From the NCBI GenBank assembly GCA_035530755.1, contig DATKUF010000036.1, positions 14,354 through 78,353 of the forward strand: a DNA stretch of 64,000 nucleotides, given 5' to 3'. This document shows positions 7,177 to 46,894 of this stretch, piece after piece. The stretch comes from Spirochaetia bacterium. Lineage in GTDB: Bacteria; Spirochaetota; Spirochaetia; DSM-27196; DATKUC01. The notes under the pieces were generated by a model. It did not search any database, had not been told where the DNA came from, and saw only the letters and a program-made list of their open reading frames with translations. Numbering within the stretch: position 1 is the first letter of the stretch; the number at the start of each line of letters is the position of its first letter. Both the position numbers and the translations under genes were made by a program.

Positions 7177-8730
7177 ATGGAAAAGAAAAAAACACTGATC
7201 GCTCCCAAAATTGTTGCGGTTGTCGACATAGGGTCGACCGCCATTCGGATAGTAATTGCCGAGATCGACGAGAAAGGTGACTGGAAGCGCCTGGATCGCG
7301 CAACCAAGCCGGTCCCGCTTGGCCGGGACGTGTTCATGTCGGGACACCTCACCCGTGAGACAATGCTGCAGGCGATTCGGATTCTCAGCGGCTTCCTCGA
7401 GATGCTTTCCGGCTGGCACATTGGGCCGAGGGACGTGCGGGTGATTGCGACCAGCGCCATTCGCGAGGCGAAGAATCGGGACACGTTCGTCGACCGCGTA
7501 TTCATCAGGACGGGACTTCGGATCAACATCATCGAAGGAGTTGAAGAGAATCACCTCACCTATCTGGCGGTCCAGCACGCGGTCCACGACATGCCCGGCC
7601 CCTTCACCAGATCGAGCTCTCTTATCATCGAGGTAGGCGGGGGAACCACCGAAGTCATGCTGCTCGATCGTGGGAACATGGTGGCGGCGCATTCGTTCCG
7701 CATCGGAACTGTGCGGATCGAGCAGCAGGTGCGACCGCGCTGGGAATCAAATACGCAGATGGAAGGGTATCTGCGCGAGAATTTGCGCGGAACTCTGGAA
7801 ATCATGAACACCGAGCTCAGGCTCGCGCGCGTGCATTACTTCGTCGCCGTCGGGGGCGACGCGCGATTGGCCGCTGCCAGAGCGGGGACGAAGGAGGCCG
7901 AGCACTACTGGATCATCGAGAAGGCGGATTTTGCCGGGTTTCTCGCGCAACTGGCCGAGCTGTCGGTGGATGAGATCGTCACTCAGCTGGGCGTAACCTA
8001 CAACGAGGCGGAGGGGTTGTATCCGGCCCTGGTGATCTACAACCTTTTTCTTGAAGCCACCGGCGCCCGGCAGCTCATTGTTCCCGATGTCAGTATCCGG
8101 GAAGGAATGCTCGTTAGCTTCGCCCTCGGCAATACGAGCGATGTCAGGGCCGAGCTCTACGGTCAGGTTGTCACCTCGGCAAAAAGCCTTGGGCGGAAGT
8201 TTCATTACGATGAAAAACATGCTATTCATGTGGCGAAGCTGGCGCTCGCGTTTTTTGACCAATTTCAGAATGATCACGGTCTGGAACATCACGCTCGACT
8301 GTTGATGGAGGTCGCGGCAATCCTCCACGACATTGGCAACTTCGTCCGATCGAGCGGCCATCACAAGCACGGACAATATATTGTCGCGAATTCGGAAATA
8401 TTTGGACTCTCTCGCGAGGATATTCGGATCATTTCGAACGTTGTCCGATATCACCGCAAGTCGATGCCCCTGGCATCGCACCCGTCGTTCGTATCGCTTC
8501 GACAGGAGCAACGGCTCATCGTGCTGAAGCTGGCCGCGATGTTGCGCGTTGCCGATGGACTCGACCGAAGTCATCAGCAGCGCGTACAGACGTTTCGTCT
8601 GGAAGTCGCCGAGGGAGATCTCCTTGTGGATTGCACCCACCAGGGCGATATCTCTGTCGAGCGATATGGTATGGCGGTCAAAGCCCTGATGTTCGAAGAA
8701 GTCTTCGGGTATCATGTAGTTATAACTTAG
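7177..8730 (+). CDS. ppx: Exopolyphosphatase / guanosine pentaphosphate phosphohydrolase (Ppx/GppA) with C-terminal HD domain
   Basis: VAVVDIGSTAIRIVIAE and EVGGGTTEV are ASKHA-fold motifs of Ppx/GppA. The C-terminal HD region has AAILHDIGNFV and ISNVVRYHRK. Confidence 0.9.
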   Translation: MEKKKTLIAPKIVAVVDIGSTAIRIVIAEIDEKGDWKRLDRATKPVPLGRDVFMSGHLTRETMLQAIRILSGFLEMLSGWHIGPRDVRVIATSAIREAKNRDTFVDRVFIRTGLRINIIEGVEENHLTYLAVQHAVHDMPGPFTRSSSLIIEVGGGTTEVMLLDRGNMVAAHSFRIGTVRIEQQVRPRWESNTQMEGYLRENLRGTLEIMNTELRLARVHYFVAVGGDARLAAARAGTKEAEHYWIIEKADFAGFLAQLAELSVDEIVTQLGVTYNEAEGLYPALVIYNLFLEATGARQLIVPDVSIREGMLVSFALGNTSDVRAELYGQVVTSAKSLGRKFHYDEKHAIHVAKLALAFFDQFQNDHGLEHHARLLMEVAAILHDIGNFVRSSGHHKHGQYIVANSEIFGLSREDIRIISNVVRYHRKSMPLASHPSFVSLRQEQRLIVLKLAAMLRVADGLDRSHQQRVQTFRLEVAEGDLLVDCTHQGDISVERYGMAVKALMFEEVFGYHVVIT

Positions 8731-8742
8731 AGGTCCGGCAGC

Positions 8743-32647: not shown

Positions 32648-33679
32648 CTAACCAGAGGGTTTAGCCAGTATAACAGGAAATTTGACAATGCAACAGGCGC
32701 CGGTTTCGTTGACGAGGCGCAGATCTCCACCCAGCGTCGCGACGATAGTCCGAATCAGCGGAATACCGAGTCCGTGTTGCGCGATTCGCTGGTTGTAGAG
32801 CACCGGTTCGGGAAATCCCGCGCCGTGATCGGTCAAGCGCAATTCAGCCAGATCGCCGTCGACCTCAAGCTCGAGATCAATAATGGCGTCGGTATCGACT
32901 CCTGTCCCGAACTGGACGGCGTTCTGCACCATTTCGGTCACCGCCTGGCCCAGCAGTAACGCTTCCCGCGGCCCGATTCTCCAGGTGTCGAGTTCGGGAT
33001 TGAACTCCACGGTGGTCGGTCGGATCCTCTCCAGATGGCGTTCCACGACATCCTGCAGAAAATGCCCGGCGTCCACGTCGGTTGGCGAGGTCGTCCCCGC
33101 GTACAGTATTGCGTAGATCTGCGGGAGAAAGGCGAGGTGTCGGCTGATGTCGGCAACGGGCAGAAGATCCGCGCGCGCTGTTTCCGATTGCGCGTCGGGA
33201 TCGGCCGGCTCAGATGAGAGATTGCGAACGGCACGGGTCGCTTCGAGACCGGCCAGCATGCGGATCGTCTCCATCATGCGATCGAGGCCCTCGCCGATGC
33301 CCGCGCGGAAGCTGTCCCTGTCTGATAGCGCGGCCGCCAGGTCGCCCTGCAGCCGGTCGCGCTCCCGCCTGTTGCGAACCAGAAGTCCGCTGAGAATCCC
33401 CGCGATAACAACCATTGCAAAAGAAGGCAGAAGCGGGCCCGTGCTATCGAGGACCGGAACCCGAAGCGCGCGCCCGACGATGATAAGGGTCACCGGAATG
33501 TTGACCAGCGACAGGAATAGCGCAGGCCACACCCGAACCGTGGCGGCGATCACCACCGGAACGACAGCGATCAGCGATGCCGCAGCGAACGCCCCGCTGA
33601 ACGCCGGCAGGATCATGACGTAAATGATGTAGAGGATGAGAGCCAGGGAAAAGCGTATGTAAAGCCGGGTCCAATCCAT
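32648..33679 (-). CDS. Membrane sensor histidine kinase-like protein (HisKA_2-like + HATPase_c), no cognate regulator adjacent
   Basis: Four N-terminal TM helices. N-box GQAVTEMVQNAVQFG, G1 LRLTDHGAGFP, G2 HGLGIPLIRTIVATLGGDL. The putative phospho-His region is divergent (VADISRHLAFLPQIYAIL). Confidence 0.6.
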   Translation of the reverse strand: MDWTRLYIRFSLALILYIIYVMILPAFSGAFAAASLIAVVPVVIAATVRVWPALFLSLVNIPVTLIIVGRALRVPVLDSTGPLLPSFAMVVIAGILSGLLVRNRRERDRLQGDLAAALSDRDSFRAGIGEGLDRMMETIRMLAGLEATRAVRNLSSEPADPDAQSETARADLLPVADISRHLAFLPQIYAILYAGTTSPTDVDAGHFLQDVVERHLERIRPTTVEFNPELDTWRIGPREALLLGQAVTEMVQNAVQFGTGVDTDAIIDLELEVDGDLAELRLTDHGAGFPEPVLYNQRIAQHGLGIPLIRTIVATLGGDLRLVNETGACCIVKFPVILAKPSG

Positions 33680-33763: not shown

Positions 33764-35506
33764 TCAAAGCAGCTTCCGCCGACGGAGGCGGTCGGTGAGC
33801 TGTTCGAAGCTGATCCCGTATTGCGACGCAATATCGCTTGCGAAGCTCTTTCCCGCCGGTGCGCCTTTGCGGATGTGGAAAGTGCGAATTGCTGCTGCCG
33901 AATCGAGCCGCTCCTCGACGCCGGCGACCAGACTTCCCAGCCGGCTGCGTCCGTCCGTCGAATCGTTGAGCTCGGCAACCCGGTCGGCCAGCCCATGCAG
34001 ATGCGTAGCGAAGATGCCTCTCGCGCCGAGGACCGAGAGAGCGCGGACGATGTCTTCCGCGAGGTATTCACCCTCGCCTGGACTCGTGCTCGCGAGCGAT
34101 TCATTCAACAGAACCATGCTTCGCTCGGTTATGGTTTCGAAGATGGCGGCGAATCTCTGCGCCTCCTCTCCCAGGCGACCGGTCGCAAGCTGCCCCTTCT
34201 CCTCGGCCGGGAAGTGAGTGACGATCTCATCCGCGGGACTGAGCGTAGTGCTCTCGGCCGGCACGTAGAGTCCGCACTGTGCGAGAACCTGGAGAATGCC
34301 GATGCCCTGCGTGTAGGTAGTCTTTCCCCCCTGATTGGGGCCGGTAAGAATTTGAAGCCGTGCTTCGGAGTCGAGCTCCGCATCATTGAGAACGATGTGA
34401 TTTTTCACATTGCGGTTTGTCTCATCCCGGCCGACGTCGGCCGGGATCGTCTTCCCGGTCTTTTCCAGCAGCCGCGTTGCCAGAAGTAGGTTGTAGAAGT
34501 TCACAGCCCGAAGCTCCCGATCGCCGGGAGACAGAATGCCGGGTTTACACAACGGCAGTCCGGCCGACGCAAGTTCTTTGAAAAGGCTCGCTGCTCCGAG
34601 AAAGAATGCGACGTCGGCCTGCAGGCGTCTCAGAATCGACGTGTTCACCATGAGGTACTTGTTGAGAACATGCACCATCGGTCGCACAGTAGCTCCGAGG
34701 AGCTGCTCGAGATCCTGAAAAAGCGGTGAAAGGGGAAACTTACGATGCGGTTCCCGCGCGTAGGACTCCGGCACGGGGGAACTGTGCATCGGAGCGGAGG
34801 TCACAAACTCGTCGTCACGCCCCACGCCGAAGATTCGAGGAAGCATCGCCTGCTCGCGAAAAGTGAACTCATTTATCGAAAGAAGGGTCGCCTCGACGGG
34901 TCGGAGTCTTTCGTCGAGATTGACGCCGATCGTGACGCTCTGCTTCTTTCGGAGGCCGGCACGAAGCTTCGGGAGCTCATCGCGCATGTTGCTGAACTTT
35001 GGTGACGAGGTGGTCGCCTCGATGTAACTGCGAAAAAGTGTCAGTCCGACGGACCTGATCTCCTCCGTCGCCCTGGAGAACCCGGCCGCAAGAGTCTCGA
35101 TGCAGTCGACGTACAGCTCGAGCTCTCCCAGCCTCCATATCGTCTCCTGCAGCGGCGAACGCGAATCCTTTCGGGTCTCGGCGAACAGCGATATCTCTTC
35201 AATTTTCGGAATGACCGAGGCGAACGCGTCGAACATCGTTTGGGACCGGTAGAAGTCCGAGAAGATATCCTGTCGGTATCGGATTACGTCGGAGTCGATT
35301 GCGGGAGAAGACAGGATCTCGAGCACGCGGGCCGGTTGTACTCCGTTTCGGCTGAGACGGATCGAAAGCTCGGTAAGGCCAAGGTCGCGTACCGTCTCGC
35401 CCGCAAGCGGGCGAAGAGCATCTTCCGGGTTCGAATCGGGCGGGAAGAGGAGACTGCCGCGAAAATCGTTCAGTTCCACACGATAGAATACTGAGCGCCC
35501 GCTCAA
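33764..35506 (-). CDS. MutS-family ATPase paralog (domain V only; no Smr or mismatch-recognition motif seen)
   Basis: Walker A LTGPNQGGKTTYTQGIGILQVLAQCGLYVPA, Walker B MVLLNESLASTSPGEG, and FATHLHGLA. 580 aa. Confidence 0.75.
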   Translation of the reverse strand: MSGRSVFYRVELNDFRGSLLFPPDSNPEDALRPLAGETVRDLGLTELSIRLSRNGVQPARVLEILSSPAIDSDVIRYRQDIFSDFYRSQTMFDAFASVIPKIEEISLFAETRKDSRSPLQETIWRLGELELYVDCIETLAAGFSRATEEIRSVGLTLFRSYIEATTSSPKFSNMRDELPKLRAGLRKKQSVTIGVNLDERLRPVEATLLSINEFTFREQAMLPRIFGVGRDDEFVTSAPMHSSPVPESYAREPHRKFPLSPLFQDLEQLLGATVRPMVHVLNKYLMVNTSILRRLQADVAFFLGAASLFKELASAGLPLCKPGILSPGDRELRAVNFYNLLLATRLLEKTGKTIPADVGRDETNRNVKNHIVLNDAELDSEARLQILTGPNQGGKTTYTQGIGILQVLAQCGLYVPAESTTLSPADEIVTHFPAEEKGQLATGRLGEEAQRFAAIFETITERSMVLLNESLASTSPGEGEYLAEDIVRALSVLGARGIFATHLHGLADRVAELNDSTDGRSRLGSLVAGVEERLDSAAAIRTFHIRKGAPAGKSFASDIASQYGISFEQLTDRLRRRKLL

Positions 35507-35610: not shown

Positions 35611-35639
35611 TTGACAGCAGTTTAGCTTCCGCTGATAAT
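35611..35639 (+). promoter_or_regulatory. Near-consensus sigma70 promoter for tRNA-Val
   Basis: TTGACA (35611-35616), a 17-nt spacer, then GATAAT (35634-39), about 22 nt upstream of the tRNA 5' end. Confidence 0.45.
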
Positions 35640-35661: not shown

Positions 35662-35733
35662 GGGCGATTAACTCAGCGGGAGAGTGCTTCCCTCACACGG
35701 AAGAAGTCAGCAGTTCAAATCTGCTATCGCCCA
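35662..35733 (+). tRNA. tRNA-Val (anticodon CAC)
   Basis: Hand-folded cloverleaf of 72 nt. Acceptor GGGCGAT/ATCGCCC; D-arm ACTC-AGCGGGA-GAGT; anticodon arm CTTCC-CTCACAC-GGAAG; variable AAGTC; T-arm AGCAG-TTCAAAT-CTGCT; discriminator A. CCA is not encoded. Confidence 0.9.
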
Positions 35734-35897
35734 CAAAGGCCACCGGCCGAGCACCCGCCTGAACGCGTCTTCGGTTCCCGTAACTGTTACTCACACAGAT
35801 ACTTACTTCCGCTCTATATCCAATCTTCGTCACAGCAATTATAGTTGAATCCGCAGGGGCTGTCGGTTTGATGCGCAGTTCCGGGGGAGGCCGAAAC

Positions 35898-36728
35898 ATG
35901 ACCGGGAAGAGACCTTTTTCGGACAGAGTTGTCGTGATCACCGGCTCGAGCCGCGGGATCGGGCGGGAGACGGCAATCGCTTTCGGTCGCGCCGGTGCGC
36001 GGGTAGTGATCAACGGTCGGGATGCCGAGCGACTCGAGAAGACCGCTGCACAGCTGCGCGCTGAAGGAATAGAGGTCGAAGCCGTCGCCGCAGACATTGC
36101 GCGGGGCTCCGACGCGGCCAGACTCATCAGCGCGGCAAAGGCGCGGTTCGGACATATCGATGTGCTCGTGAACAACGCGGGCGTCTCGATGCGCGGCCTG
36201 TTCTCCGAGCTTGTACCCGAGGTCGTAGAAACCGTCGTGCGGACCAACATCACCGGTGCCGTAGTGCCGACCGTGGCGGCGATGAACGAGCTGCGCGAGC
36301 GTCGCGGGAGCATCATCTTTGTTTCCAGTCTTGCCGGTGTGCATGGCTTTCCAAATGTTTCGATCTACTCCGCCGCGAAGATGGCGCTCACCGGTCTTGC
36401 TCAGTCTCTCGACGCGGAGCTCGCAGGAAGCGGAGTTCACGTCGGGCTGATCTTTCTCGGCTTCACGGAAAATGACCCTGACAAGAGCATTCTTGCGGCC
36501 GACGGTCGCGAGATCATAGTAAAGCGCCGTCACCAGATGAGTCAGTCGCAAGCCGCGCAGGAGATAGTGAAGCTGACGGTCCGCAGGCGGCGGCAGCGGG
36601 TGCTTACGCCTCCCGGCCGTCTCCTCTATCTCGCCGCTCACGTTGCGCCCGTACTCGTCCGCGCCGTTCTGCGGAGATCCGGAGGACGAATCCATGCGGG
36701 AACCTCGGCCCGGGAAGCGAATAGATGA
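35898..36728 (+). CDS. Short-chain dehydrogenase/reductase (classical SDR)
   Basis: Start moved to ATG 35898 after a GGGGGAGG Shine-Dalgarno sequence. VVVITGSSRGIGRETA (TGxxxGIG), NNAG, and the catalytic SIYSAAKMAL (YxxxK). Confidence 0.85.
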   Translation: MTGKRPFSDRVVVITGSSRGIGRETAIAFGRAGARVVINGRDAERLEKTAAQLRAEGIEVEAVAADIARGSDAARLISAAKARFGHIDVLVNNAGVSMRGLFSELVPEVVETVVRTNITGAVVPTVAAMNELRERRGSIIFVSSLAGVHGFPNVSIYSAAKMALTGLAQSLDAELAGSGVHVGLIFLGFTENDPDKSILAADGREIIVKRRHQMSQSQAAQEIVKLTVRRRRQRVLTPPGRLLYLAAHVAPVLVRAVLRRSGGRIHAGTSAREANR

Positions 36729-38245
36729 TCGACCTTGACCGGTGGATGAACGAGAGGACGTTTCATCACTCCCAGTTCAGCGACATCCGCGAGCTCGTGG
36801 CCCGAAAAAGGGCGCAGGGGCTCACCATAAGTCTCTGTTTTCCTGCGCTGAACGAAGAGCGGACGATTGGCCGCGAAATTCGTATCCTGCGTCGTGAGCT
36901 CATGGAGCGCTATCCGCTTCTCGACGAAATCGGCGTGGTGGACAGCGGGAGCACCGACAGGACTCGCGAGGTAAGTGAGCGCGCCGGAGCCTCGTTTCAT
37001 CTCGCTGCGGATTGTCTGCCCTCGCTCGGCTCCCGTCGGGGCAAGGGCGAGAACCTCTGGAAAAGTCTCTACCTTTTCTCGGGCGACATCATTGTCTGGA
37101 TCGACTCGGACATCCGCAATATCCATCCGAAGTTCGTCTACGGGCTGCTGGGCCCGCTCCTGCATGATCCGGCGATCGGCTACGTGAAAGCGTTCTACCG
37201 CCGGCCAATTCGCATTGGACGGCGCACCTTCCCGGGAGGCGGCCGGGTAACCGAGCTGCTCGTCCGGCCATTTCTCAACATGTTCTATCCGGATCTTTCG
37301 CTGTTCGCGCAGCCGCTTTCGGGTGAATACGCGGGCAGACGGCAGCTGCTCGAGCAAATGCCGTTCTTCAGCGGGTACGGCGTAGAGATCGGGCTGCTCA
37401 TCGACCTCGAACAGCGATTCGGAATTGGCGCCATCGCACAGGTGGATGTCGATGAGCGAATCCACCGAAACCAGAATCTGGAAAGCCTCCGGCGGATGTC
37501 CTACGTGATTCTTTCGGTGATGATCGAGCGCTCAGAACAGCTGGGCAAACTGGCGTTGCTCGAAAGTCTCGGTCACCGGCTTCACCTCCTTCAGCGCGAG
37601 GGGGCACACTATCTGCACGCAACCGAGGAAGTCCGCGGCACCGAACGCCCCCCGATGATTACCGTGAGCGAGTATCAGCGGAAACGGGGGATTGCCGATG
37701 ACGACCGGACGCTCATCGAGGGATTCATCGGCCAAAAACGGCAGGTGATGCCGCCGATCATCGCACATATCGACGACGCGATCGTCGTAATGGATATGTC
37801 GTCGAAAACGGCAGCCGAATCATTCCGTGAGCTTGTCGAACGGATTCCGTCTGATCGGTGCCCGGTAGGCGCGCAAGAGCTGGTGACCGGTCTCATCGAT
37901 CGGGAACATAGAATGAACACCGGTCTCGGGCAGGGTGTTGCTATCCCCCATTTCGTGTCGCCACGACTGCGGGCGTTGCAGCTTATAATTGGAAGATCAG
38001 CCGCCGGGATCGACTTTGGCGCCGTCGACCAGGAGCCGGTTCGTCTCGTTGTGATGCTGCTCGCCCCGGAAAACCAGCGTGACCGTTATCTGAATGTGCT
38101 TGCCGCGATCGCCCGACTACTCCAGGAACCGGGAGCCCTGGCGCGTCTGGCCGAAGCAGAGACACCCGATAGCCTTTTGACGGTGCTCAAGAAGTACGAG
38201 GCTCTGATCAGGCTCCGGCAGGAACTCGAGCCGACCGCCGGCTGA
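36725..38245 (+). CDS. Glucosyl-3-phosphoglycerate synthase-like GT-A glycosyltransferase fused to a C-terminal PTS EIIA(Ntr/Fru)-type domain
   Basis: N-terminal ~330 aa: ISLCFPALNEERTIGREI, VVDSGSTDRT, RRGKGENLWKSLY and the DxD motif in VWIDSDI. C-terminal ~150 aa: GLGQGVAIPHFVSP (conserved His) and PVRLVVMLLAPENQRDRYLNVLAAIARLL. The ATG overlaps the SDR stop (ATGA). Confidence 0.7.
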   Translation: MIDLDRWMNERTFHHSQFSDIRELVARKRAQGLTISLCFPALNEERTIGREIRILRRELMERYPLLDEIGVVDSGSTDRTREVSERAGASFHLAADCLPSLGSRRGKGENLWKSLYLFSGDIIVWIDSDIRNIHPKFVYGLLGPLLHDPAIGYVKAFYRRPIRIGRRTFPGGGRVTELLVRPFLNMFYPDLSLFAQPLSGEYAGRRQLLEQMPFFSGYGVEIGLLIDLEQRFGIGAIAQVDVDERIHRNQNLESLRRMSYVILSVMIERSEQLGKLALLESLGHRLHLLQREGAHYLHATEEVRGTERPPMITVSEYQRKRGIADDDRTLIEGFIGQKRQVMPPIIAHIDDAIVVMDMSSKTAAESFRELVERIPSDRCPVGAQELVTGLIDREHRMNTGLGQGVAIPHFVSPRLRALQLIIGRSAAGIDFGAVDQEPVRLVVMLLAPENQRDRYLNVLAAIARLLQEPGALARLAEAETPDSLLTVLKKYEALIRLRQELEPTAG

Positions 38246-38317: not shown

Positions 38318-39919
38318 ATGTACACGTTTCTCATCATCGACGACGAACCCATTGTTCGCGAAGGAATTTCAGAAAACATCGACTGGCTCGCTCACGGTTT
38401 CCGCCTCGTCGGCGCATGTCGGGACGGTCGGGAAGGAATTCGAGCAATAGAAGATCTTCGACCGGATGTCGTTCTCACCGACATCTGCATGCCATTCGTT
38501 GACGGTCTCGAGCTGGCGGGGTTCATCGCCGACCGGTATCCTGAAACCAAAACGATTCTTCTGACTGGTTTCGATGAGTTCGAATATGCGCAGGAGGCAG
38601 TCAGGCTCAAGGTCAACGATCTCCTGCTCAAACCGATCACCGCTGATGAGCTTCGCACGAAACTGGACCGGCTCCGTGCCGAGCTCGATGAGGAGCGTCG
38701 CAGACAGCGGGATCTCGCCAGGCTTCGGGAGCAGAACCAGGAGAGTCTCCCGCTTCTGCGTGAACGTTTTCTCAAAAGGCTTGTTCTGGGAGAACTGGAC
38801 GAAGCCGAAGCGGCGCGCAGATGTGCGACCCTCGAAATCGATCTGCCGGGGCCATTCTTCAACCTGCTTATCATCGATCCGGACCGGGTCGACCCCGATG
38901 ACGACATGCGAAGCCTCGCGATTCAGAATGTCGTGGACGGAGTGATGCGCAATCGCGCCGGTGCAATGTCTTTTTCGACCGAAAGGGAACATGTCGTTGT
39001 TCTGCTTTCAGCGGCGGATGGACGTTGCGCGGTCGATCTGGCGCTCGAGACCGCGGAGGAGCTGTCGGAGCGCGTGAGAAGAACGCTTGGGACCACGGTT
39101 TCGATCGGAGTCGGATCGCCCGTGACCCTTATCGCGCACATCGACGAATCCTACCGCGGAGCCCGTGCGGCGCTCGGACAGCGGCTTGTGCTCGGGCCGC
39201 ACCAGATAGTAATTGCCGAACAGATACCGGACGACGTCGGCGAGCAGGTACCTCACGCCGAGCAGCAGGCCCGGGGGAGGGTGATACGCGAGTTCAGGGC
39301 CGGAACGGCCGTACAAACGGAGTCGGCCGTACGAGATTTCGTGGCGCTGTACCGATCGACCGGCCGCAGCGTGGAGGCGTGCTACGTCGGAATGCTGCGA
39401 CTCCTTGCGGACCTGCTGTCCGCGTTCGAATCGCTCGGAGTTCAATACTCTCAGATTCCGGAGACTGCCGACGATCCATTTGGAGAACTCGCGGGACTGA
39501 AGACGCTCGAGGCCATCGAGCAATGGTTTCGCGATCTGCAGCGAAAGGCGCGCGCAGTGATTGCCGAACGGCAGAACCGGCAATCGGTGGCGAAGGCTCT
39601 TGAAGCCGAAGACTACATCGCGGCGCATTTTGCCGAACCCGGTTTGTCGCTCACACGCCTGTGCCGCGCCATCTCGATAAGCAAGAGCTACCTCAGTACC
39701 GTATTCAAGGGTCACACGGGCATGACCTTCGTGGAGTACCTGACGAATATCCGCATGGAACGCGCGCGTGAGCTGCTCGGCTCAAGCAACCTCAAAAGCT
39801 ACGAGGTCGCAGAACAGGTCGGCTTCACCGACGCGCACTATTTCAGCCTCACCTTCCGAAAGCAGACCGGAATAAGTCCGACCGAGTACCGCGACTCGGT
39901 TCGGGGAGTGGCGCAGTGA
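38318..39919 (+). CDS. Response regulator with AraC-type HTH output (YesN-like)
   Basis: REC domain: MYTFLIIDDEPIVREG, DVVLTDICMPFVDGLEL, LLLKPI. C-terminal AraC HTH: LSLTRLCRAISISKSYLSTVFK, GFTDAHYFSLTFRKQTGISPTEYR. Confidence 0.9.
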   Translation: MYTFLIIDDEPIVREGISENIDWLAHGFRLVGACRDGREGIRAIEDLRPDVVLTDICMPFVDGLELAGFIADRYPETKTILLTGFDEFEYAQEAVRLKVNDLLLKPITADELRTKLDRLRAELDEERRRQRDLARLREQNQESLPLLRERFLKRLVLGELDEAEAARRCATLEIDLPGPFFNLLIIDPDRVDPDDDMRSLAIQNVVDGVMRNRAGAMSFSTEREHVVVLLSAADGRCAVDLALETAEELSERVRRTLGTTVSIGVGSPVTLIAHIDESYRGARAALGQRLVLGPHQIVIAEQIPDDVGEQVPHAEQQARGRVIREFRAGTAVQTESAVRDFVALYRSTGRSVEACYVGMLRLLADLLSAFESLGVQYSQIPETADDPFGELAGLKTLEAIEQWFRDLQRKARAVIAERQNRQSVAKALEAEDYIAAHFAEPGLSLTRLCRAISISKSYLSTVFKGHTGMTFVEYLTNIRMERARELLGSSNLKSYEVAEQVGFTDAHYFSLTFRKQTGISPTEYRDSVRGVAQ

Positions 39920-41763
39920 TCGATAGTCGGCATCGCAGTATTCAGACGACTATCGCGCTCGCATTCGGAGCGCTGGTTCTTGCGATGGTCATCATCATGG
40001 CATTCTTGTCATACACCTTCACCCAGGATGCGGTGGAGCAGACGTCACGGGACTACACGCAACTTCTTGTTGCGCAGATACAGACCAACATTGACTCCTA
40101 CGTCACTCATATGGAGAACATCGCCGAAGTCGTTCACCTGAACGAACAGGTGCAGAGTTATCTCAGCTCGGCCGGCAGACTTTCGCAGTCGGAAGAGCAA
40201 CGGTACCAGGAACGAATCTCCGGTTTTCTCAGCTCCATCGCACATACCCGAAACGACATATCGCTCATCCTGATCGTGGATACCCGCGGGCAGGTCATCA
40301 CCCAGGACGCGAGAATCCGATTACGCAGCTCCGTCACGCTGGAAAACGAGGCGTGGTTCAATCGGGCGTGGGAGGCGGCCGGGAAGCCGGTCATTTCTTC
40401 GCCTCATGTGCAGAACATTGTGGAAGGAGTGTACCGCTGGGTGATTACGCTCAGCCGGACCATCAACGACGTGCACACCGGTCGGCGACTCGGGGTGCTG
40501 CTTGTCGATCTGAACTTCTCGGTCATCAACAACCTGGTCAACGACATCAGCCTCGGGAAGAAAGGTTATCTGTTCATCGTGGACCCCGAAGGCGGTATCG
40601 TGTATCACCCGCGTCAGGAGCTGCTGTACAGCGACCTCGAACGCGAGCATATCAACAGGGTACTCGAAGCAGGCGTCGGTTCGTTTTCCGTAAACGACGC
40701 AAGAGGCGATCGCATATATTCCGTGGACGTCTCGAAAGAGACCGGATGGCGCACCGTCGGCGTCAACTACGTATCCGATCTGGTCCGCAACCGCCCCACC
40801 ATCCAGCGCTACTACTTTTACTGGACGCTCGTGTGTGTGGCCGCCGCAATCTTTGTGGCCGCGATCATCTCCTACAGGCTCTCACGTCCGATCACGCGCC
40901 TGCGCAAGTCGATGCAGGCGGTGGAACAGGGCAATTTCGATGTTTCGGCGGAGGTTACCGGCAGCAACGAGATTGGAGCGCTCGCGCGCGACTTCAACAT
41001 CATGATTACGCAGATCAAAGAGCTCATGCTGCGCAACGCGGCAGAACAGGAACAGAAACGCAAGAGCGAGCTTCTGGCGCTGCAGAACCAGATCACGCCG
41101 CACTTTCTCTACAACACGCTGGATTCGGTGATATGGATGGCCGAGGGACGCCAGTATTCCAACGTGATTACCACTATTTCGGCGCTCGCGCGCCTGTTGC
41201 GCCTGTCGATCAGCCGCGGCGACGAGCTGATAAGCATTCATGACGAGATCGAGCACATCAAGAGCTACCTGACGATACAGAAGCTCCGCTACAAAGACAA
41301 ACTGGATTTCGCGATCGATGTCGACAGCGCGCTTATGCCGTTGAAGACGCCGAAGGTCATTCTCCAACCGCTCGTCGAAAATGCGATCTATCACGGCATC
41401 AAGAACAAGGAGGGTACGGGCCAGATTGTCATTACCGGACGCCGGATTCGAAATGTGGTGGATATTCTGGTGACCGATGACGGGGTTGGAATGAGCGAAG
41501 AGAAGCGCCGCGAGATACTGCACAGCCACACAGACGAAATCGACGATTCCGTCTCGGCGAAATCCGCAGGCGGAAACGGCGCGAAACCGTCCCCGGTGCC
41601 GAAAGGCCGGGCAACACGCGTGGGTGTTCTAAACGTCCACGAACGAATCCAGCTCTATTTCGGCCCCGAATACGGTCTCACGTTCCAGAGCAACAACGGT
41701 TGCGGGACAGTCGTGCACGTACGACTTCCGGTTGTGGAGGACGATGATACACACGATGCGTAG
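39916..41763 (+). CDS. Sensor histidine kinase (YesM-like: Cache/dCache, HAMP, His_kinase, HATPase_c)
   Basis: Two TM segments flank a periplasmic domain. HAMP (RPITRLRKSMQAVEQGNFD), phospho-His box QNQITPHFLYNTLDSV, N-box PKVILQPLVENAIYHG, and DDGVGM. GTG start overlaps the regulator stop. Confidence 0.9.
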   Translation: MIDSRHRSIQTTIALAFGALVLAMVIIMAFLSYTFTQDAVEQTSRDYTQLLVAQIQTNIDSYVTHMENIAEVVHLNEQVQSYLSSAGRLSQSEEQRYQERISGFLSSIAHTRNDISLILIVDTRGQVITQDARIRLRSSVTLENEAWFNRAWEAAGKPVISSPHVQNIVEGVYRWVITLSRTINDVHTGRRLGVLLVDLNFSVINNLVNDISLGKKGYLFIVDPEGGIVYHPRQELLYSDLEREHINRVLEAGVGSFSVNDARGDRIYSVDVSKETGWRTVGVNYVSDLVRNRPTIQRYYFYWTLVCVAAAIFVAAIISYRLSRPITRLRKSMQAVEQGNFDVSAEVTGSNEIGALARDFNIMITQIKELMLRNAAEQEQKRKSELLALQNQITPHFLYNTLDSVIWMAEGRQYSNVITTISALARLLRLSISRGDELISIHDEIEHIKSYLTIQKLRYKDKLDFAIDVDSALMPLKTPKVILQPLVENAIYHGIKNKEGTGQIVITGRRIRNVVDILVTDDGVGMSEEKRREILHSHTDEIDDSVSAKSAGGNGAKPSPVPKGRATRVGVLNVHERIQLYFGPEYGLTFQSNNGCGTVVHVRLPVVEDDDTHDA

Positions 41764-42751
41764 AGTATGGAAAATCTGGATACCAATTCTCCTCCTCGTC
41801 GTCGTCGCGGTTGTTCTCAGTCAGACACGGTTCGTCCGACTCATCAACCGGCACGCGCACGAGTCGGTGTATGTCGTGCTGAAAGCCACTGGCCAAAGCA
41901 TGGAATTCTGGCAGATCGTGCGCGCCGGTATCCAGGTGGCTGCCACCGAGTACGACATCGAGCCGAAAATCGTTGGCCCGGAGTGGGAGAAAGACGTCGA
42001 CAAGCAGATCGAAATCCTCGGCCAGGTCATCAAGAAGAAGCCGGACGCGATACTGCTCGCCGCCTCCGATTACAAGCGTCTGGTACCCCTCGCGGAGAAA
42101 GCGGTCAAGGAGGGCATCACGATTGTTACGCTCGACTCGGCGCTCGACAGCGACGCGCCGGTTAGCTTCGTGGCCACCGACAACGTTGCTGCCGGCCGCA
42201 AAGCGGGGGCCGAGATAGCGGGCCTCGTGCCACATGGCCGTCCGATAGCAATCATCTCCCACATCCGGGGAGTCGCGACAGCGATCGACCGCGAGAAAGG
42301 TGTCCGCGACGCATTGAGCGATGCCGGACGGTCTGCGCCGGTCGGAACCTTCTACAGCGAGAACGACTTCGATATCGCATATCGCGAGACGAAGAAACTT
42401 CTCGCCGAGTATCCGAATCTCGGTGGTATCGTCGCGCTGAACGAAAACTCCGCGATCGGCACAGGCAGGGCACTCCGCGACGCCGGTGCGGCCGGGCGGG
42501 TGAAGCTCGTGGGATTCGACAATTCGCAGGAAGAGATCGAATTTCTCGAGGACGGGGTAGTCCAGGCTCTTATCGTGCAGAAGCCGTTCAACATGGGGTA
42601 TCTCGGAATACGAACGGTGGTGCAGGCCCTGCGCGGCGAAAAGGTTCCTCGAGTCATCCATACCGAATCGGTACTGGTCCGAAAAGAGGACATGTTCACA
42701 CCGGAAAACCAGAAACTGCTTTTCCCCATTCTTCGAGACCGGCAGGAGTAG
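41744..42751 (+). CDS. Membrane-anchored periplasmic sugar-binding protein (type I PBP), probable co-sensor for the YesM/YesN pair
   Basis: N-terminal anchor RRVWKIWIPILLLVVVAVVL, then a PBP1 fold: YVVLKATGQSMEFWQIVRAG, KPDAILLAASD, ITIVTLDS, GIVALNENSAIGTGRAL, VKLVGFDNS. Start is ambiguous (41744 or 41756). Confidence 0.8.
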   Translation: MIHTMRRVWKIWIPILLLVVVAVVLSQTRFVRLINRHAHESVYVVLKATGQSMEFWQIVRAGIQVAATEYDIEPKIVGPEWEKDVDKQIEILGQVIKKKPDAILLAASDYKRLVPLAEKAVKEGITIVTLDSALDSDAPVSFVATDNVAAGRKAGAEIAGLVPHGRPIAIISHIRGVATAIDREKGVRDALSDAGRSAPVGTFYSENDFDIAYRETKKLLAEYPNLGGIVALNENSAIGTGRALRDAGAAGRVKLVGFDNSQEEIEFLEDGVVQALIVQKPFNMGYLGIRTVVQALRGEKVPRVIHTESVLVRKEDMFTPENQKLLFPILRDRQE

Positions 42752-42850
42752 GCGGATTCCGTACGATTGCGACCAATCCGTGGAATATTCTCCATTTACC
42801 GCTGGTACAAAGCATGCGAAGCTCTATGGAGAGCGTAAGGAGTCGCGTCA

Positions 42851-44371
42851 GTGGGCCAGCAAATCCTTTTAATGGAGAAAATAGACAAGCGCTTCACGGG
42901 CGTGCATGCCCTGAACCAGGTAGACTTCGACCTCAACGAGGGTGAGATCCACGCCCTCGTCGGCGAGAACGGTGCCGGCAAGTCCACGCTGATGAAAGTT
43001 CTTGTCGGAATTAACTCGAAGGACTCCGGCGAAATCCACTACCTCGGCCGTCTGTTCAATCCCCGCAATCCACGACACGCCATGGAGATGGGAATTGGCA
43101 TCATTCATCAAGAGTTGAACATGATGGACCACCTCACTGTCGCCCAGAACATCTTTATCGGACGGGAATCCACCCGAATGAATGGAATGCTGCTGGACAA
43201 GCGAGAGCAGAACAGGCGGACGGCAGAGCTGTTCAAGCGGCTCAAGATGAATATCGATCCGACCGAGCAGCTCTCGCGTCTCACGGTCGGGAAGCAGCAG
43301 ATGGTGGAGATCGCCAAGGCGGTATCGCATCGATTGCGCGTGCTCATCCTCGACGAGCCGACCGCGGCGCTCACCGAAAGCGAAATCAAGGAGCTTTTTG
43401 TCATCATGCGGGACCTCGCGAGCCGCGGGGTGGGCATGATTCACATTTCGCACCGACTCGAAGAGATCCACCAGATCGCCGACCGGGTCACGGTCCTGCG
43501 TGACGGGGAGCTGGTCGGCACGAAGAACACTTCAGAAGTCACCAAGGCGCAGATCATCAACATGATGGTCGGTCGGGTAATCTACGAAAAACCGAAAGCG
43601 AAGAGCAATGTTCTTGCCGATGCGCCGGTCGTTCTTCGCGTGCAGAACCTGAACGCGGGAAGGCTGGTTCGCAACATCAGCTTCGAGCTTCGCAAAGGCG
43701 AGATCCTCGGATTCTCCGGCCTCGTCGGGGCGGGTAGAACCGAGACTGCACGGGCGATTTTCGGCGCGGATGAGATTCAAAGCGGAACCATCGAGATAGG
43801 CGGACGGCGCGTTACGATTCGGTCGCCCGAGGATGCAGTTGCCCATGGATTGGGATACCTCTCCGAGGACCGCAAGCGGTATGGGCTGGCCGTGAATCTC
43901 AGCGTCAAAGACAATCTGGTCATGGCGACCTACGACCTTTTCGTTCGCGGACTGTTCGTGCATGCAGGAAAAATCCGAAAAGTGTCCGAGGAATACGCGG
44001 ATCGGCTCAGCATAAAGACGCCTTCGCTGGAACAGCTTCTTCGCAACCTCTCCGGCGGCAATCAGCAGAAGGTGGTTATAGCGAAGTGGCTGATTCGCAA
44101 CTGCGACATCCTCGTTTTTGACGAACCGACCCGGGGAATCGACGTTGGTGCGAAAAGCGAAATATATACGTTGATGAACGAATTGGTGCGGGAAGGCAAA
44201 TCAATCATCATGATCTCTTCCGAGCTGCCGGAGATTCTCCGCATGAGCGACCGAATTATCGTCATGTGCGAAGGTCGAATTACCGGAGAGCTTGCCATCG
44301 AAGATGCAAGCCAGGAGGCGATCATGGAGTATGCCACCATGGGGCACCAGGAAGTCCTTGCCGGGAGTTGA
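42851..44371 (+). CDS. Sugar ABC transporter ATP-binding protein, duplicated cassette (RbsA/MglA type)
   Basis: Two cassettes: GENGAGKSTLMK ... LTVGKQQMVEIAKA ... LILDEPTAAL, and GLVGAGRTE ... LSGGNQQKVVIAKWL ... LVFDEPTRGID. Confidence 0.9.
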   Translation: MGQQILLMEKIDKRFTGVHALNQVDFDLNEGEIHALVGENGAGKSTLMKVLVGINSKDSGEIHYLGRLFNPRNPRHAMEMGIGIIHQELNMMDHLTVAQNIFIGRESTRMNGMLLDKREQNRRTAELFKRLKMNIDPTEQLSRLTVGKQQMVEIAKAVSHRLRVLILDEPTAALTESEIKELFVIMRDLASRGVGMIHISHRLEEIHQIADRVTVLRDGELVGTKNTSEVTKAQIINMMVGRVIYEKPKAKSNVLADAPVVLRVQNLNAGRLVRNISFELRKGEILGFSGLVGAGRTETARAIFGADEIQSGTIEIGGRRVTIRSPEDAVAHGLGYLSEDRKRYGLAVNLSVKDNLVMATYDLFVRGLFVHAGKIRKVSEEYADRLSIKTPSLEQLLRNLSGGNQQKVVIAKWLIRNCDILVFDEPTRGIDVGAKSEIYTLMNELVREGKSIIMISSELPEILRMSDRIIVMCEGRITGELAIEDASQEAIMEYATMGHQEVLAGS

Positions 44372-44376
44372 AAAGT

Positions 44377-45663
44377 ATGGCAGATGCAACCATCGAAATC
44401 AGCCGAATGCAGCGGTTCAAGCAGCAGGGTCTCAAGTACATGCTTGCTCCGGCCGCGCTGCTCATCCTCTACGTTTTGTTCGGGATACTTGGACGTGATT
44501 ACTTCTCCTACCCGACCTTCGTAAACATCATTGACGCGGCCTTCTACATCGGGTTCATCTCTATGGGTGTTACCTTCGTGATCATAAGCGGCGGAATCGA
44601 TCTTTCGGTCGGGACCGTCATGATGGCGGCGACCCTCATTGGTGGAACGGCGATGAAACACGGGCTGCCCATGGTGCCGACCCTCTTGTTGATTATCGTA
44701 GTTGGCCTCCTCTTCGGACTTTTCAACGGGCTGCTGGTGTCGCGGCTCAAGATGCCGCCGTTCATCGTCACTCTCGGTACCATGATGATCTCGATGGGTG
44801 TCGGTTCGATCGTCTCGAACGTGCAAAGTGCGACCTTCCCCATTCGCAGCGCCCCGGGAGGTTGGTTCAAGAGCATCTTTCTCTACCTCAGTCCCAACGG
44901 CGTCAATATTCCAACGGGCGCCTTCCTGCTGGTGGCGATTGCGGTGATCTGTCACCTCATGCTTTCGAATACGAAACTGGGCCGCTACACCTACGCCATC
45001 GGCAGCAACAAAGAGGCGGCACGCCTCTCGGGTGTCGATGTCAAGAAGTGGGAGCTTCTGGTCTACGTGATCGCCGGTGGAACTGCCGGTATCGGCGGCA
45101 TCTCCTACGCCGCAATCTATACCACGATTCTCCCGGCGCAGGGCCAGGGATTCGAGTTGTACGCAATCGCAGCCGCAGTTATCGGCGGCACCTCGCTTGC
45201 CGGAGGAGTCGGCACCATCTGGGGCACAATGATCGGCGTTTTCATCATGTCGGTTCTTGCCACCGGATTGCCTGCCATGGGACTTCAGGCGCACTGGCAG
45301 ACCTTCTTCACCGGTGTCATCGTGATCGGCGCGGTGCTCCTCGATATGTACCGGAACAAGAAGGCGTCGGAGGTTCGCATCGTAACTCCAGCAGACACGT
45401 ACCGGACGTCGATGATGGACAAGATCGCGTTGATCAAGCATGAGGCGTCGGTCCACAAGTCGGCAGGACGGTCTTCTGAAGCTGCAGCGTTGCAGAAGCA
45501 GATCGTCGAAGCGCGCGTGGAGATGAAGGCAACCTACGCGAGAATGAAGGCGGAAGAGAAGGCCGATGAGGCGCGGGTCCGGGCCGAAGAAAAGGCGGCG
45601 GACCGGGATTTTGCCGAAATGCTTCGGGCACGGGAACTGGAACAGGAAAGCAGCGCGAAATGA
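44377..45663 (+). CDS. Sugar ABC permease (RbsC/BPD_transp_2 type) with a ~100-aa charged C-terminal tail
   Basis: Start moved to ATG 44377, just after the ATPase stop. The core has GGIDLSVGTVM, PPFIVTLGTMMI, IGGTSLAGGVGTIWGTMIG. The tail is Lys/Glu/Ala/Arg-rich. Confidence 0.85.
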   Translation: MADATIEISRMQRFKQQGLKYMLAPAALLILYVLFGILGRDYFSYPTFVNIIDAAFYIGFISMGVTFVIISGGIDLSVGTVMMAATLIGGTAMKHGLPMVPTLLLIIVVGLLFGLFNGLLVSRLKMPPFIVTLGTMMISMGVGSIVSNVQSATFPIRSAPGGWFKSIFLYLSPNGVNIPTGAFLLVAIAVICHLMLSNTKLGRYTYAIGSNKEAARLSGVDVKKWELLVYVIAGGTAGIGGISYAAIYTTILPAQGQGFELYAIAAAVIGGTSLAGGVGTIWGTMIGVFIMSVLATGLPAMGLQAHWQTFFTGVIVIGAVLLDMYRNKKASEVRIVTPADTYRTSMMDKIALIKHEASVHKSAGRSSEAAALQKQIVEARVEMKATYARMKAEEKADEARVRAEEKAADRDFAEMLRARELEQESSAK

Positions 45664-45760
45664 CGGCAACGGTCGGTCGCGGACAGAATTACGGTAAATT
45701 TCCCGGAATACGGGTTCAGTCCTGGGCGTACGCTCGGGCAGAAAAATTACGGAGGTATCT

Positions 45761-46894
45761 ATGAGTATTTCCAGACGTACAGGAGCGTTGCTTGTTGCAG
45801 TCGCTTTCCTCTTGGCGCTCGCGCTCCCCGTTTTTGCGAACGGTTCGAAAGAGAGCGGAAGTCAGGGATCGGCGGCGCAGGGCAGCAAGATCTTCATTCC
45901 TATGGTTTCGAAGGGATTCCAGTTCCAGTACTGGCAGGTCGTCATGAAGGGCGCGCAGGCAGCCGCGAAGAAGTACGGCGTCGACATGACCTTCGAAGGG
46001 CCGCCAACTGAGAGCGACATTCAGATCCAGGTCCAGGAACTGTCGAACGCGATGGCGAAGAACCCGTCTGCCATCTGTCTCGCAGCGCTCGACACCAATT
46101 CAGTCATGGACATGCTGAACCAGGCCGTCGCCAAGAAAATCCCGGTCATCGGGTTTGACTCCGGAGTTCCGAATGCACCCAAGGGCGCTATCTACGCGAC
46201 CGCGTCAACCGACAACATGGCTGCAGCCGGCATAGCGGCCGACCATATGTTCGCGAAGATCAAGGACAAAATCATTGCGGCCACCGCATCGAATCCGGTC
46301 ACCATCATCGATTTCAACCAGGATGCCACCAGCCAGTCGGTTACTTTCCGTGGTAAGGGTTTTCGCGATGAGATGGTCAAGCTGATCGAGACCCAGGGCA
46401 ACCATCCGGCGAGCGACATCAAAGTCACCGGCAATCCGGCCTACATCGCGTCGGACAGCCCGAACAGTTCGAATCCAGCGGTCATTATCGAGGCGATCGT
46501 CCCTGCCAGCACGAAGACCGTGGACGCGACCAATTCGGCCAACGCCATCCTGAGCCGCTTCAAGTCCAGCAACATCGCAGGAATCTTCTGCTCGAACGAA
46601 GGTACCGTGAGCGGAGTGCTCGCCGCCACCAATGACGGCAGTGCGATCCCGACCCAGTACCCCGGCCTGATCGTCATCGGTTTCGACGCCGGAAAGGCCC
46701 AGAAGACCGCCGTCCGCAAGGGTTACTTCCTCGGCTCGATCACCCAGGACCCCTACATGATCGGGTACGACGCGATGGAGCTTGCCTACAAGGCAGTGAA
46801 GGGCGAGCCCGTATCGAACGTAGACACGGGTGCAAAGTGGTGGGATGTTTCCAACATGGACCAGCCCGACATCGCTCAGCTCCTCTACGATTGA
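45761..46894 (+). CDS. Sugar ABC substrate-binding protein (type I PBP)
   Basis: Signal MSISRRTGALLVAVAFLLALALPVFANG. PBP1 blocks: KIFIPMVSKGFQFQYWQVVMKGA, NPSAICLAALD, IPVIGFDSG, GIFCSNEGTVSG, VIGFDAG. Confidence 0.85.
   Translation: MSISRRTGALLVAVAFLLALALPVFANGSKESGSQGSAAQGSKIFIPMVSKGFQFQYWQVVMKGAQAAAKKYGVDMTFEGPPTESDIQIQVQELSNAMAKNPSAICLAALDTNSVMDMLNQAVAKKIPVIGFDSGVPNAPKGAIYATASTDNMAAAGIAADHMFAKIKDKIIAATASNPVTIIDFNQDATSQSVTFRGKGFRDEMVKLIETQGNHPASDIKVTGNPAYIASDSPNSSNPAVIIEAIVPASTKTVDATNSANAILSRFKSSNIAGIFCSNEGTVSGVLAATNDGSAIPTQYPGLIVIGFDAGKAQKTAVRKGYFLGSITQDPYMIGYDAMELAYKAVKGEPVSNVDTGAKWWDVSNMDQPDIAQLLYD

Follow-up and report, generated by a model that had tools for sequence, protein, structure and literature searches.

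We analysed a 64-kb stretch of DNA from a Spirochaetia bacterium (contig DATKUF010000036.1, positions 14,354 to 78,353; hereafter the window) that carries a gene joining a glucosyl-3-phosphoglycerate synthase (GpgS) to a domain of the phosphotransferase system (PTS). The gene is an uninterrupted open reading frame (ORF) on the forward strand (36725..38245) and specifies a 506-aa protein, in which a GT81 GpgS domain is followed by a linker and a PTS EIIA-2 domain. The glucosyl/mannosyl-3-phosphoglycerate synthase domain, of GT-A fold, spans residues 1-322 (36725..37690, +), as recognized by the NCBIfam model NF010496, by sequence matches in the Protein Data Bank (PDB) and by Foldseek; homologues without a C-terminal tail end within 25 aa of this boundary. 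A helical linker, visible in the AlphaFold secondary structure, occupies residues 323-345 (37691..37759, +). The EIIA-2 domain, of the fructose/mannitol/nitrogen-regulatory (Fru/Mtl/Ntr) class, covers residues 346-501 (37760..38227, +; PF00359 and PtsN structure matches). The protein is 100% identical to P0001, which is annotated as GpgS and comes from a Spirochaetia metagenome-assembled genome (MAG), on an 87-kb contig. The motifs quoted in a first-pass annotation of the window are all present: FPALNEERTIGREI at residues 39-52, DSGSTDRT at 73-80, GKGENLWKSLY at 106-116, WIDSDI at 125-130 and GQGVAIPHF at 402-410.

Directly upstream lies a gene for a short-chain dehydrogenase/reductase (SDR) oxidoreductase, 276 aa from the ATG at 35898 (35898..36728, +; adh_short, 173 bits). 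Its longest ORF begins at TTG 35868, and GGAGG precedes the ATG at 35898. The SDR stop codon TGA (36726-36728) overlaps the fusion ATG (36725-36727), and the coordinates agree with the ATGA overlap noted by the first-pass annotation (36725-36728). The overlapping pair also occurs in relatives with 75% and 67% identity (L089 and L088). Conservation of this coupling is restricted to the close Salinispira-like lineage, and the loci of the other phyla are without the SDR gene.

The N-terminal part is of the GpgS/mannosyl-3-phosphoglycerate synthase (MpgS) type, as annotated, and does not group with unrelated GT2 enzymes. Residues 4-315 matched the GpgS equivalog model NF010496 with 373.1 bits against a cutoff of 262, covering model positions 5-306 of 307, and residues 36-168 matched Pfam Glycos_transf_2 (40 bits). 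Fusion proteins from Eisenbacteria, from Calditrichia and of a 528-aa subtype described below scored 362-382 bits with NF010496. The closest solved structures by sequence were R. xylanophilus MpgS (1.4e-68) and mycobacterial GpgS (about 1e-61; PDB 3f1y, 7p5l and 4y6n), and the GT part of the AlphaFold model aligned with GpgS/MpgS crystal structures at template modelling (TM) scores of 0.87-0.93 in Foldseek.

The catalytic residues are conserved as well. The DxD motif for metal and nucleotide-sugar binding, D127-S-D129 (37103..37111, +; codons checked), has both aspartates invariant in 114 members of the fusion family. Also invariant in these 114 homologues are K107-G108, G172-E177 (GGRVTE; L178 varies), Q196-Y202 (QPLSGEY), G217/Y218/V220/E221 and H247/N249. 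The GGGRVTEL, QPL.GEYAG, GYGVE and HRN motifs align with those of M. hassiacum GpgS; we take them to line the 3-phosphoglycerate acceptor and metal sites, as in mycobacterial GpgS. His247 of the HRN motif (37463..37465, +), invariant in the family and aligned with 'aHRNrpl' of the M. hassiacum enzyme, is presumably a metal ligand, as in the mycobacterial GpgS structures. Judged by these motifs, the domain would have the look of an active enzyme that uses 3-phosphoglycerate. The resemblance to actinobacterial GT81 GpgS (M. tuberculosis Rv1208 and M. hassiacum; 4y6n, 7p5l) extends over the GT-A fold, an identity of 40-45%, the DxD, GKGE, GGGRVTEL, QPL.GEYAG, GYGVEIGLL and HRN motifs and the NCBIfam model passed, whereas the characterized actinobacterial enzymes consist of one domain, measure about 320-330 aa and have no EIIA.

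Homology alone leaves the choice between a glucose and a mannose donor undecided, with an NDP-glucose (NDP, nucleoside diphosphate) the most likely one. For glucose speak the GpgS equivalog match and the structural alignments, in which Foldseek identity is higher to mycobacterial GpgS (40-45%) than to Rubrobacter MpgS (37%). For mannose speaks the top PDB sequence match, which is the mannosyl-3-phosphoglycerate synthase of R. xylanophilus (3f1y, 3kia, 3o3p; 235 bits vs 213 for mycobacterial GpgS). This is the best solved relative both by sequence and by fold (E 9e-29, TM 0.90); it is annotated as a mannosyl transferase, has no EIIA and casts doubt on which donor sugar the window enzyme uses. 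We regard it as unlikely that the product is mannosyl-3-phosphoglycerate, as for the dual-specificity Rubrobacter MpgS, or a primer of a glycoconjugate or polysaccharide, as for mycobacterial methylglucose lipopolysaccharide (MGLP), since NF010496 was passed by a wide margin and the fusion proteins of three phyla score alike. The window, however, encodes no GpgP, Spirochaetaceae have mggA/mggB homologues (PMC3736172), and the gene next to the fusion in Eisenbacteria encodes a second, MGS_GT-like transferase; elsewhere, fusions of GpgS with an MGS_GT-like transferase or with GT4 occur, which suggests further glycosylation. The missing GpgP does not disqualify the enzyme from GpgS membership, because genes for the pathway phosphatase are frequently unlinked (PMC3736172). 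Another product would concern the product alone and would be compatible with phospho-control, the EIIA domain then regulating that pathway instead.

The fusion is not peculiar to the window. We searched a 5.8-billion-protein collection made up of independent assemblies from NCBI, ENA, JGI and Logan, and 114 of the best 120 protein clusters were full-length (about 505-545 aa), carried both Pfam domains and shared 42-100% identity with the window protein, setting the number of fusions at no fewer than 114. The remaining six were shorter entries, mostly on short contigs. Named carriers are Spirochaetia, Candidatus Eisenbacteria, Calditrichota and Salinispira pacifica (76% identity), the nearest cultured relative with the fusion. 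Scanning GTDB with one genome for each species, we found at least 582 GpgS relatives; among the best 80 of these, six run on into EIIA (L008-L013) and 74 stop within 25 residues past the GT end. Of the 50%-identity representatives, 638 proteins matched at E<=1e-30, and among the best 150 only three representatives and one fragment span EIIA, so that fusions make up a minor branch of an extensive enzyme family. A neighbour-joining tree of 201 GT-domain sequences placed all 123 fusion proteins in one clade of 127, in which the other four members are truncated fragments, and none of the 74 tail-less GpgS genes fell inside it. By this tree the fusion arose once and was then maintained as a unit while spreading over at least three phyla.

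An artefact of assembly, be it a frameshift or a chimeric contig, has a negligible chance of accounting for the fusion. The ORF is continuous in at least 114 independent clusters and in six GTDB species representatives, the single frame reported by the first-pass annotation is intact in orthologues from several phyla, and we found nothing in favour of an artefact. AlphaFold modelled the two-domain chain, from the 114-sequence alignment, with a mean predicted local distance difference test (pLDDT) score of 89.9 and a predicted TM score (pTM) of 0.88. In this model the linker contains a helix at residues 325-334 (mean pLDDT 91 for residues 321-330 and 77 for 331-340), and the linker is missing from GpgS homologues without an EIIA tail. 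No solved structure among the Foldseek matches covers both the GT and the EIIA domain.

Turning to the C-terminal part, residues 352-490 scored 86.9 bits (cutoff 27) with Pfam PTS_EIIA_2 (PF00359) and covered model positions 6-143 of 144. By sequence the domain matched PtsN structures at 1e-11 to 1e-12 and EIIA-mannitol at 6e-07, and its fold matched the PtsN structures 2a0j, 3urr and 1a6j at TM 0.80-0.85 (Foldseek). A search with the EIIA domain alone returned free-standing proteins of 150-155 aa with 33-45% identity, many of them named nitrogen-regulatory IIA. The label EIIA(Ntr) of the first-pass annotation could be kept in part: PF00359 and the PtsN fold match bear out an EIIA of this kind, while 'Ntr' reflects nearest-neighbour similarity, and the domain scored under both PtsN equivalog cutoffs, TIGR01419 and NF008145 (56.2 vs 138.7 and 45.2 vs 221 bits). 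Because of these scores, 'PtsN-like', as opposed to PtsN proper, would be a fair label. The likeness to PtsN/EIIA-Ntr (E. coli 1a6j, Burkholderia 3urr/4gqx, Neisseria 2a0j) lies in the fold, the acceptor histidine in GxAxPH and the active-site arginine. PtsN, however, is a free protein of about 150-165 aa acting in trans, whereas the window domain makes up the C-terminal third of a 506-aa enzyme, has tyrosine in place of the second histidine and shows no rpoN/ptsO linkage in the window. A special tie to the E. coli mannosylglycerate PTS transporter MngA was considered and rejected, its EIIA scoring 37 bits against 69 for the fructose type and 56 for PtsN.

We aligned the fused domains with 120 free-standing relatives and E. 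coli PtsN. The predicted phospho-acceptor, His409 (37949..37951, +), equivalent to H73 of PtsN and H65 of EIIA-Mtl, is a histidine in 113 of the 114 fusions and in all 120 free-standing proteins. Arg393 (37901..37903, +), equivalent to R57 of PtsN and R49 of EIIA-Mtl, is also present in 120/120 free-standing proteins and is an arginine in 83/114 fusions. The position of the second active-site histidine (EIIA-Mtl H111, PtsN H120) is held by Tyr455 in the window protein (38087..38089, +), by tyrosine in 110/114 fusions and by histidine in 118/120 free-standing proteins. The role of the residue equivalent to His409 has been described, and the acceptor histidine and the arginine are conserved in all EIIA-Ntr and EIIA-Mtl proteins (PMC1201152). 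The same work proposed that H111 of EIIA-Mtl serves phosphate transfer to EIIB and found that the PtsN counterpart faces away from the active site; loss of the second histidine may therefore leave phosphate acceptance intact. With the acceptor histidine kept and the onward-transfer histidine replaced by tyrosine, the domain would fit a terminal phospho-acceptor. Mean pairwise identity within the fusion family is 34% for the EIIA domain vs 61% for the GT domain, and His409 is among only about eight EIIA positions conserved at 90% or more. Given how much more rapidly the EIIA domain diverges than the GT domain does, a retained His409 is informative, and this pattern of conservation points to selection on that residue.

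We propose that the window encodes a GT81 GpgS gated in cis by phosphorylation of His409 from HPr or NPr, a reading to which we give a probability of roughly 55%. The retaining GT81 enzyme would condense an NDP-hexose, most likely NDP-glucose, with 3-phosphoglycerate to form glucosyl-3-phosphoglycerate, from which the compatible solute glucosylglycerate, or a larger derivative like mannosylglucosylglycerate, is made. Enzyme I (EI) would charge HPr or NPr from phosphoenolpyruvate (PEP), HPr~P or NPr~P would phosphorylate His409 as terminal acceptor, and the phosphorylation state of His409 would allosterically switch the transferase to which the domain is joined. Solute synthesis would thereby track the PEP/pyruvate ratio and, with a donor of the EI-Ntr type, also the 2-oxoglutarate/glutamine ratio; autophosphorylation of EI-Ntr is raised by 2-oxoglutarate and inhibited by glutamine (PMC13104625). 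As 3-phosphoglycerate is two enzymatic steps from PEP, the PEP/pyruvate ratio may also report substrate supply. Activation upon phosphorylation is our guess at the direction, because PTS-Ntr phosphorylation and glucosylglycerate accumulation both go with nitrogen limitation. Within this scheme we infer what the enzyme makes, that His409 is phosphorylated, which protein donates the phosphate and any response of catalysis.

Several observations weigh against gating by phosphorylation. The fusion proteins have lost the second active-site histidine, and the EIIA domain of the window protein falls under both PtsN equivalog cutoffs. The family further divides into a subtype of about 507 aa with the signature R...G[IV]A[IV]PH...Y (83 members, including the window protein) and one of about 528 aa, 31 of the 114 members, in which the arginine is lost and GxA[IV]PH is replaced by NxAFFH. 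Canonical phosphotransfer may not hold across the whole fusion family and, going by these signatures, would be less certain in the form of about 528 aa. There was no gene for HPr, NPr or EI in the window or within 10 kb of any fusion locus examined, and an all-against-all ORF comparison of 10 fusion loci revealed no neighbour common across phyla except a PF04008 gene in two lineages.

These points also feed a rather unlikely alternative, in which the EIIA domain is degenerate and not phosphorylated, serving in ligand binding, oligomerization or docking, with His409 kept for structure or binding. Besides the tyrosine in 110/114 proteins, the loss of an otherwise universal arginine in 31/114 together with the altered NxAFFH, the mean identity of 34% and the sub-cutoff PtsN scores, it would explain why most loci have no nearby PTS gene. 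It sits less well with a histidine that ranks among the few positions conserved at 90% or more in a fast-evolving domain, or with the full acceptor signature R...G[IV]A[IV]PH retained in the window protein and 82 others, and the outward-facing equivalent in PtsN (PMC1201152) means that the lost second histidine need not impair acceptance.

Possible PTS partners were sought in the window using Pfam lists for 1-20.9, 26.7-48.2 and 45.5-64 kb, our own scan of 20.1-25.9 kb and an HPr hidden Markov model (HMM) run on ORFs of at least 50 aa. As the first-pass annotation had stated for GpgP and for other PTS components, the window encodes none of those looked for: no PTS component beside the fusion, HPr, NPr, EI, HAD phosphatase or histidine phosphatase (a GpgP candidate). 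Applied to the window and 87 loci, the HPr HMM gave a sole match, in L017, whose GpgS is without an EIIA domain; this HMM was built from three sequences and is weak, so that its result is no strong evidence of absence. Salinispira pacifica, a halophile growing at 2-15% NaCl, has two phosphocarrier genes, L21SP2_2173 and L21SP2_3294, two Enzyme I genes, L21SP2_1343 and L21SP2_3295, and several Enzyme II genes (PMC4511686), and PMC2937029 (its reference 60) cites Treponema denticola as an organism that has the phosphoryl-transfer proteins of the PTS while lacking its permeases. Spirochaetes therefore do possess regulatory PTS branches.

The signal might also run the other way, the GT domain sensing 3-phosphoglycerate or NDP-sugar and the EIIA domain relaying its state to targets such as K+ transporters or kinases, an arrangement that we consider very unlikely. 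The catalytic and substrate-binding motifs of the GT domain are invariant, as expected of an active enzyme and not of a sensor relic, and it is this domain that evolves slowly and the EIIA domain that evolves fast. Free-standing PtsN does bind many partner proteins (PMC13104625), and one MAG (CAZNYW01) has both a fusion and a tail-less GpgS, so the fusion may not be the housekeeping synthase there. In that case the EIIA-fused GpgS (P0003, 75% identity to the window protein) lies in L089 (CAZNYW010000084.1) and the tail-less GpgS (53% identity) in L058 (CAZNYW010000005.1). The shared accession prefix indicates what is apparently one Spirochaetales MAG, in which the two would be paralogues if the binning is right.

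Regulation of GpgS by an attached domain would not be confined to EIIA. In 38 of the 74 tail-less GpgS loci the same ORF carries an N-terminal module of about 280 aa, which proved to be tandem Usp (PF00582) in the three scanned (L021, L026 and L057). The loci with this Usp-type N-terminus are L018, L021 (3816-5816), L022, L026-L032, L034-L036, L038, L039, L043, L045, L048-L050, L053, L055-L057, L061-L064, L066, L069, L073-L076, L080 and L084-L086; they belong mostly to Anaerolineae and other Chloroflexota, with one Acidobacteriota, one Deltaproteobacteria and one Sphingomonadaceae MAG. Further fusions join GpgS to HAD (Hydrolase_3), to an MGS_GT-like transferase, to GT4 and to cpYpsA (SLOG); proteins with further architectures or extensions are P0276, P0243, P0313, P0340, P0280, P0265, P0295, P0325 and P0339. 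GpgS is thus a fusion hub with partners of two kinds, pathway enzymes and sensor-type domains. The window protein shares with the Usp-Usp-GpgS, GpgS-cpYpsA (SLOG), GpgS-HAD and GpgS-GT proteins the GT81 core (50-60% identity) plus an added domain, which for Usp and SLOG is of a sensor or nucleotide-binding type. These proteins differ from it in partner and position (Usp is N-terminal) and fall outside the EIIA-fusion clade, and HAD and GT are pathway enzymes. Because other GpgS lineages carry sensor-type Usp or SLOG domains, we read EIIA as a regulatory add-on, which the analogy supports.

Other extensions of GpgS had no assignable domain. In four GpgS proteins a C-terminal region of about 190 aa gave no Pfam match. 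The C-terminal extensions of P0339 and P0325 were tried as divergent EIIA and rejected, the profile comparison having aligned the GT part only. At two Treponematales/Spirochaetota loci (L051:3260-5398 and L054:6937-9177) GpgS lies in stop-free ORFs with 376-410 extra N-terminal residues; these are conserved between both loci (467 bits), have no Pfam match and no ATG, and might be a domain with a non-ATG start.

Among known systems, EIIA-Ntr and GlmS in Salmonella (PMC5024086; reviewed in PMC13104625) offer a proposed analogy, a sugar enzyme controlled post-translationally according to phosphorylation state. There, however, the EIIA is a separate protein with many targets, whereas the window domain is covalently dedicated to one enzyme. 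More generally, PtsN acts in trans on potassium transport and on enzymes, GlmS among them (PMC13104625).

Control in cis is a feature of the PRD-type regulators, in which the window protein finds a second parallel. Regulators of the MtlR and LicR class have a built-in PTS_EIIA_2-type domain that is phosphorylated by PTS components and switches their activity in cis. Their EIIA stands beside PRD and EIIB-like domains and their output is DNA binding or antitermination, whereas the window protein has no PRD and its output is a glycosyltransferase.

The surroundings of the gene vary between lineages. The shared PF04008 gene is a small gene lying a few kb from the fusion, in Calditrichia (L005:14340-14828 and L010:9799-10344) and in a Spirochaetes clade (L012:10434-11075 and L013:5813-6304); the copy in L005 is annotated PF04008 'adenosine-specific kinase'. 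On a 2.69-Mb Eisenbacteria chromosome (L004:11598-13471) the fusion is followed by a gene for a 419-aa glycosyltransferase with weak GpgS and MGS_GT similarity and then by one for a 197-aa protein with transmembrane helices of the mechanosensitive-channel type, a gene context that fits osmoadaptation. In Calditrichia (L005:7612-9194 and L010:2442-4446) genes for a histidine-kinase-like protein, a PTS EIIB of the sorbose type and YjbQ lie just upstream of the fusion; L005 also has a gene for an MtnX-like HAD-IB phosphatase, with HAD-IB and EIIB 1-2 kb upstream of the fusion. In L033 (4719-10993), from a spirochaete with a tail-less GpgS, a gene for a free-standing 167-aa EIIA (PF00359, 106 bits) lies within about 3 kb upstream of gpgS, together with genes for a cofactor-independent phosphoglycerate mutase and a SpoIIE-type phosphatase. 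The contexts in Eisenbacteria, Calditrichia and L033 are single observations, suggestive and of little weight.

In the window, a tRNA-Val (CAC) gene (35662..35734, +; Rfam RF00005 65 bits, ARAGORN) separates the SDR-fusion pair from a divergent MutS-like gene. The tRNA starts 22 nt downstream of a near-consensus sigma-70-like promoter, TTGACA-17-GATAAT (35611..35639, +; 11/12 matches). This promoter most likely drives the tRNA; it may read through into the SDR-fusion pair and should not be credited to that pair on present evidence. An Rfam scan of the intergenic region upstream revealed no riboswitch, the tRNA-Val being the sole match. The MutS-like gene (33764-35506, -) encodes a 580-aa protein with only MutS domain V (ATPase) and adjoins a gene for a 343-aa HATPase_c protein (32648-33679, -). 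Both L088 and L089 have the MutS-domain gene upstream of their SDR-fusion pair, and L089 has the HATPase_c gene as well. Gene calls for both relatives also place a gene of 84-86 aa, on the opposite strand, in the space from the MutS-domain gene to the SDR gene, and it may overlie the tRNA.

Downstream of the fusion (38318-46894) the window encodes a two-component pair of the YesN/YesM type, with an AraC-type response regulator and a dCache/HAMP histidine kinase, followed by sugar-binding proteins and a sugar ABC transporter. L089 keeps the two-component pair and the first binding-protein gene; in the 67%-identity relative, L088, the two-component pair is missing and the genes downstream of the fusion differ. 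Because the pair is kept in one relative and missing in the other, the block is probably a separate unit. Further away (7177-10914), a Ppx/GppA-HD gene adjoins a polyphosphate kinase gene; a bioRxiv preprint (10.1101/2021.10.15.464621) ties polyphosphate production in E. coli to PtsN.

Glucosylglycerate builds up in cells deprived of nitrogen, and the control of its level has been called 'elusive' (PMC5381378). As a tentative extension, more doubtful than phospho-control itself, a regulatory PTS of the nitrogen type may be linked directly and post-translationally to compatible-solute synthesis. During nitrogen limitation or carbon surplus, NPr~P would then phosphorylate His409 and turn GpgS on, and glucosylglycerate, an anionic solute free of nitrogen, would replace glutamate.

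Both domains are well known and the architecture is already in databases under automatic names; the combination is uncharacterized. We found no paper joining glucosyl-3-phosphoglycerate synthase with EIIA, also with broader queries, in a search that covered subscription journals thinly and so leaves a prior mention possible. The words 'fused' and 'fusion' are absent from a 2026 review of PTS-Ntr (PMC13104625). The observation and the domain assignments are solid, and the proposed regulatory mechanism is plausible and specific. In practice the finding is of modest importance, since it would add one point of regulation to a known pathway, in bacteria that are uncultured or little studied.

Carbon and nitrogen status and the balance of potassium are signalled by regulatory PTS branches, whose few known enzyme targets are acted on in trans (PMC13104625). 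The fusion names both a target, GpgS, and the likely phosphorylation site of a regulatory PTS. Several bacteria accumulate glucosylglycerate at low nitrogen or high salt. The independent acquisition of EIIA, tandem-Usp and SLOG domains by one enzyme core suggests that this pathway is often controlled after translation and that such control has escaped notice. If the link from a nitrogen-type PTS to solute synthesis is true, this would be the first known PTS relay to end in cis on a biosynthetic glycosyltransferase; seen alongside the fusions to Usp and SLOG, it would imply that built-in sensor domains widely control GpgS.

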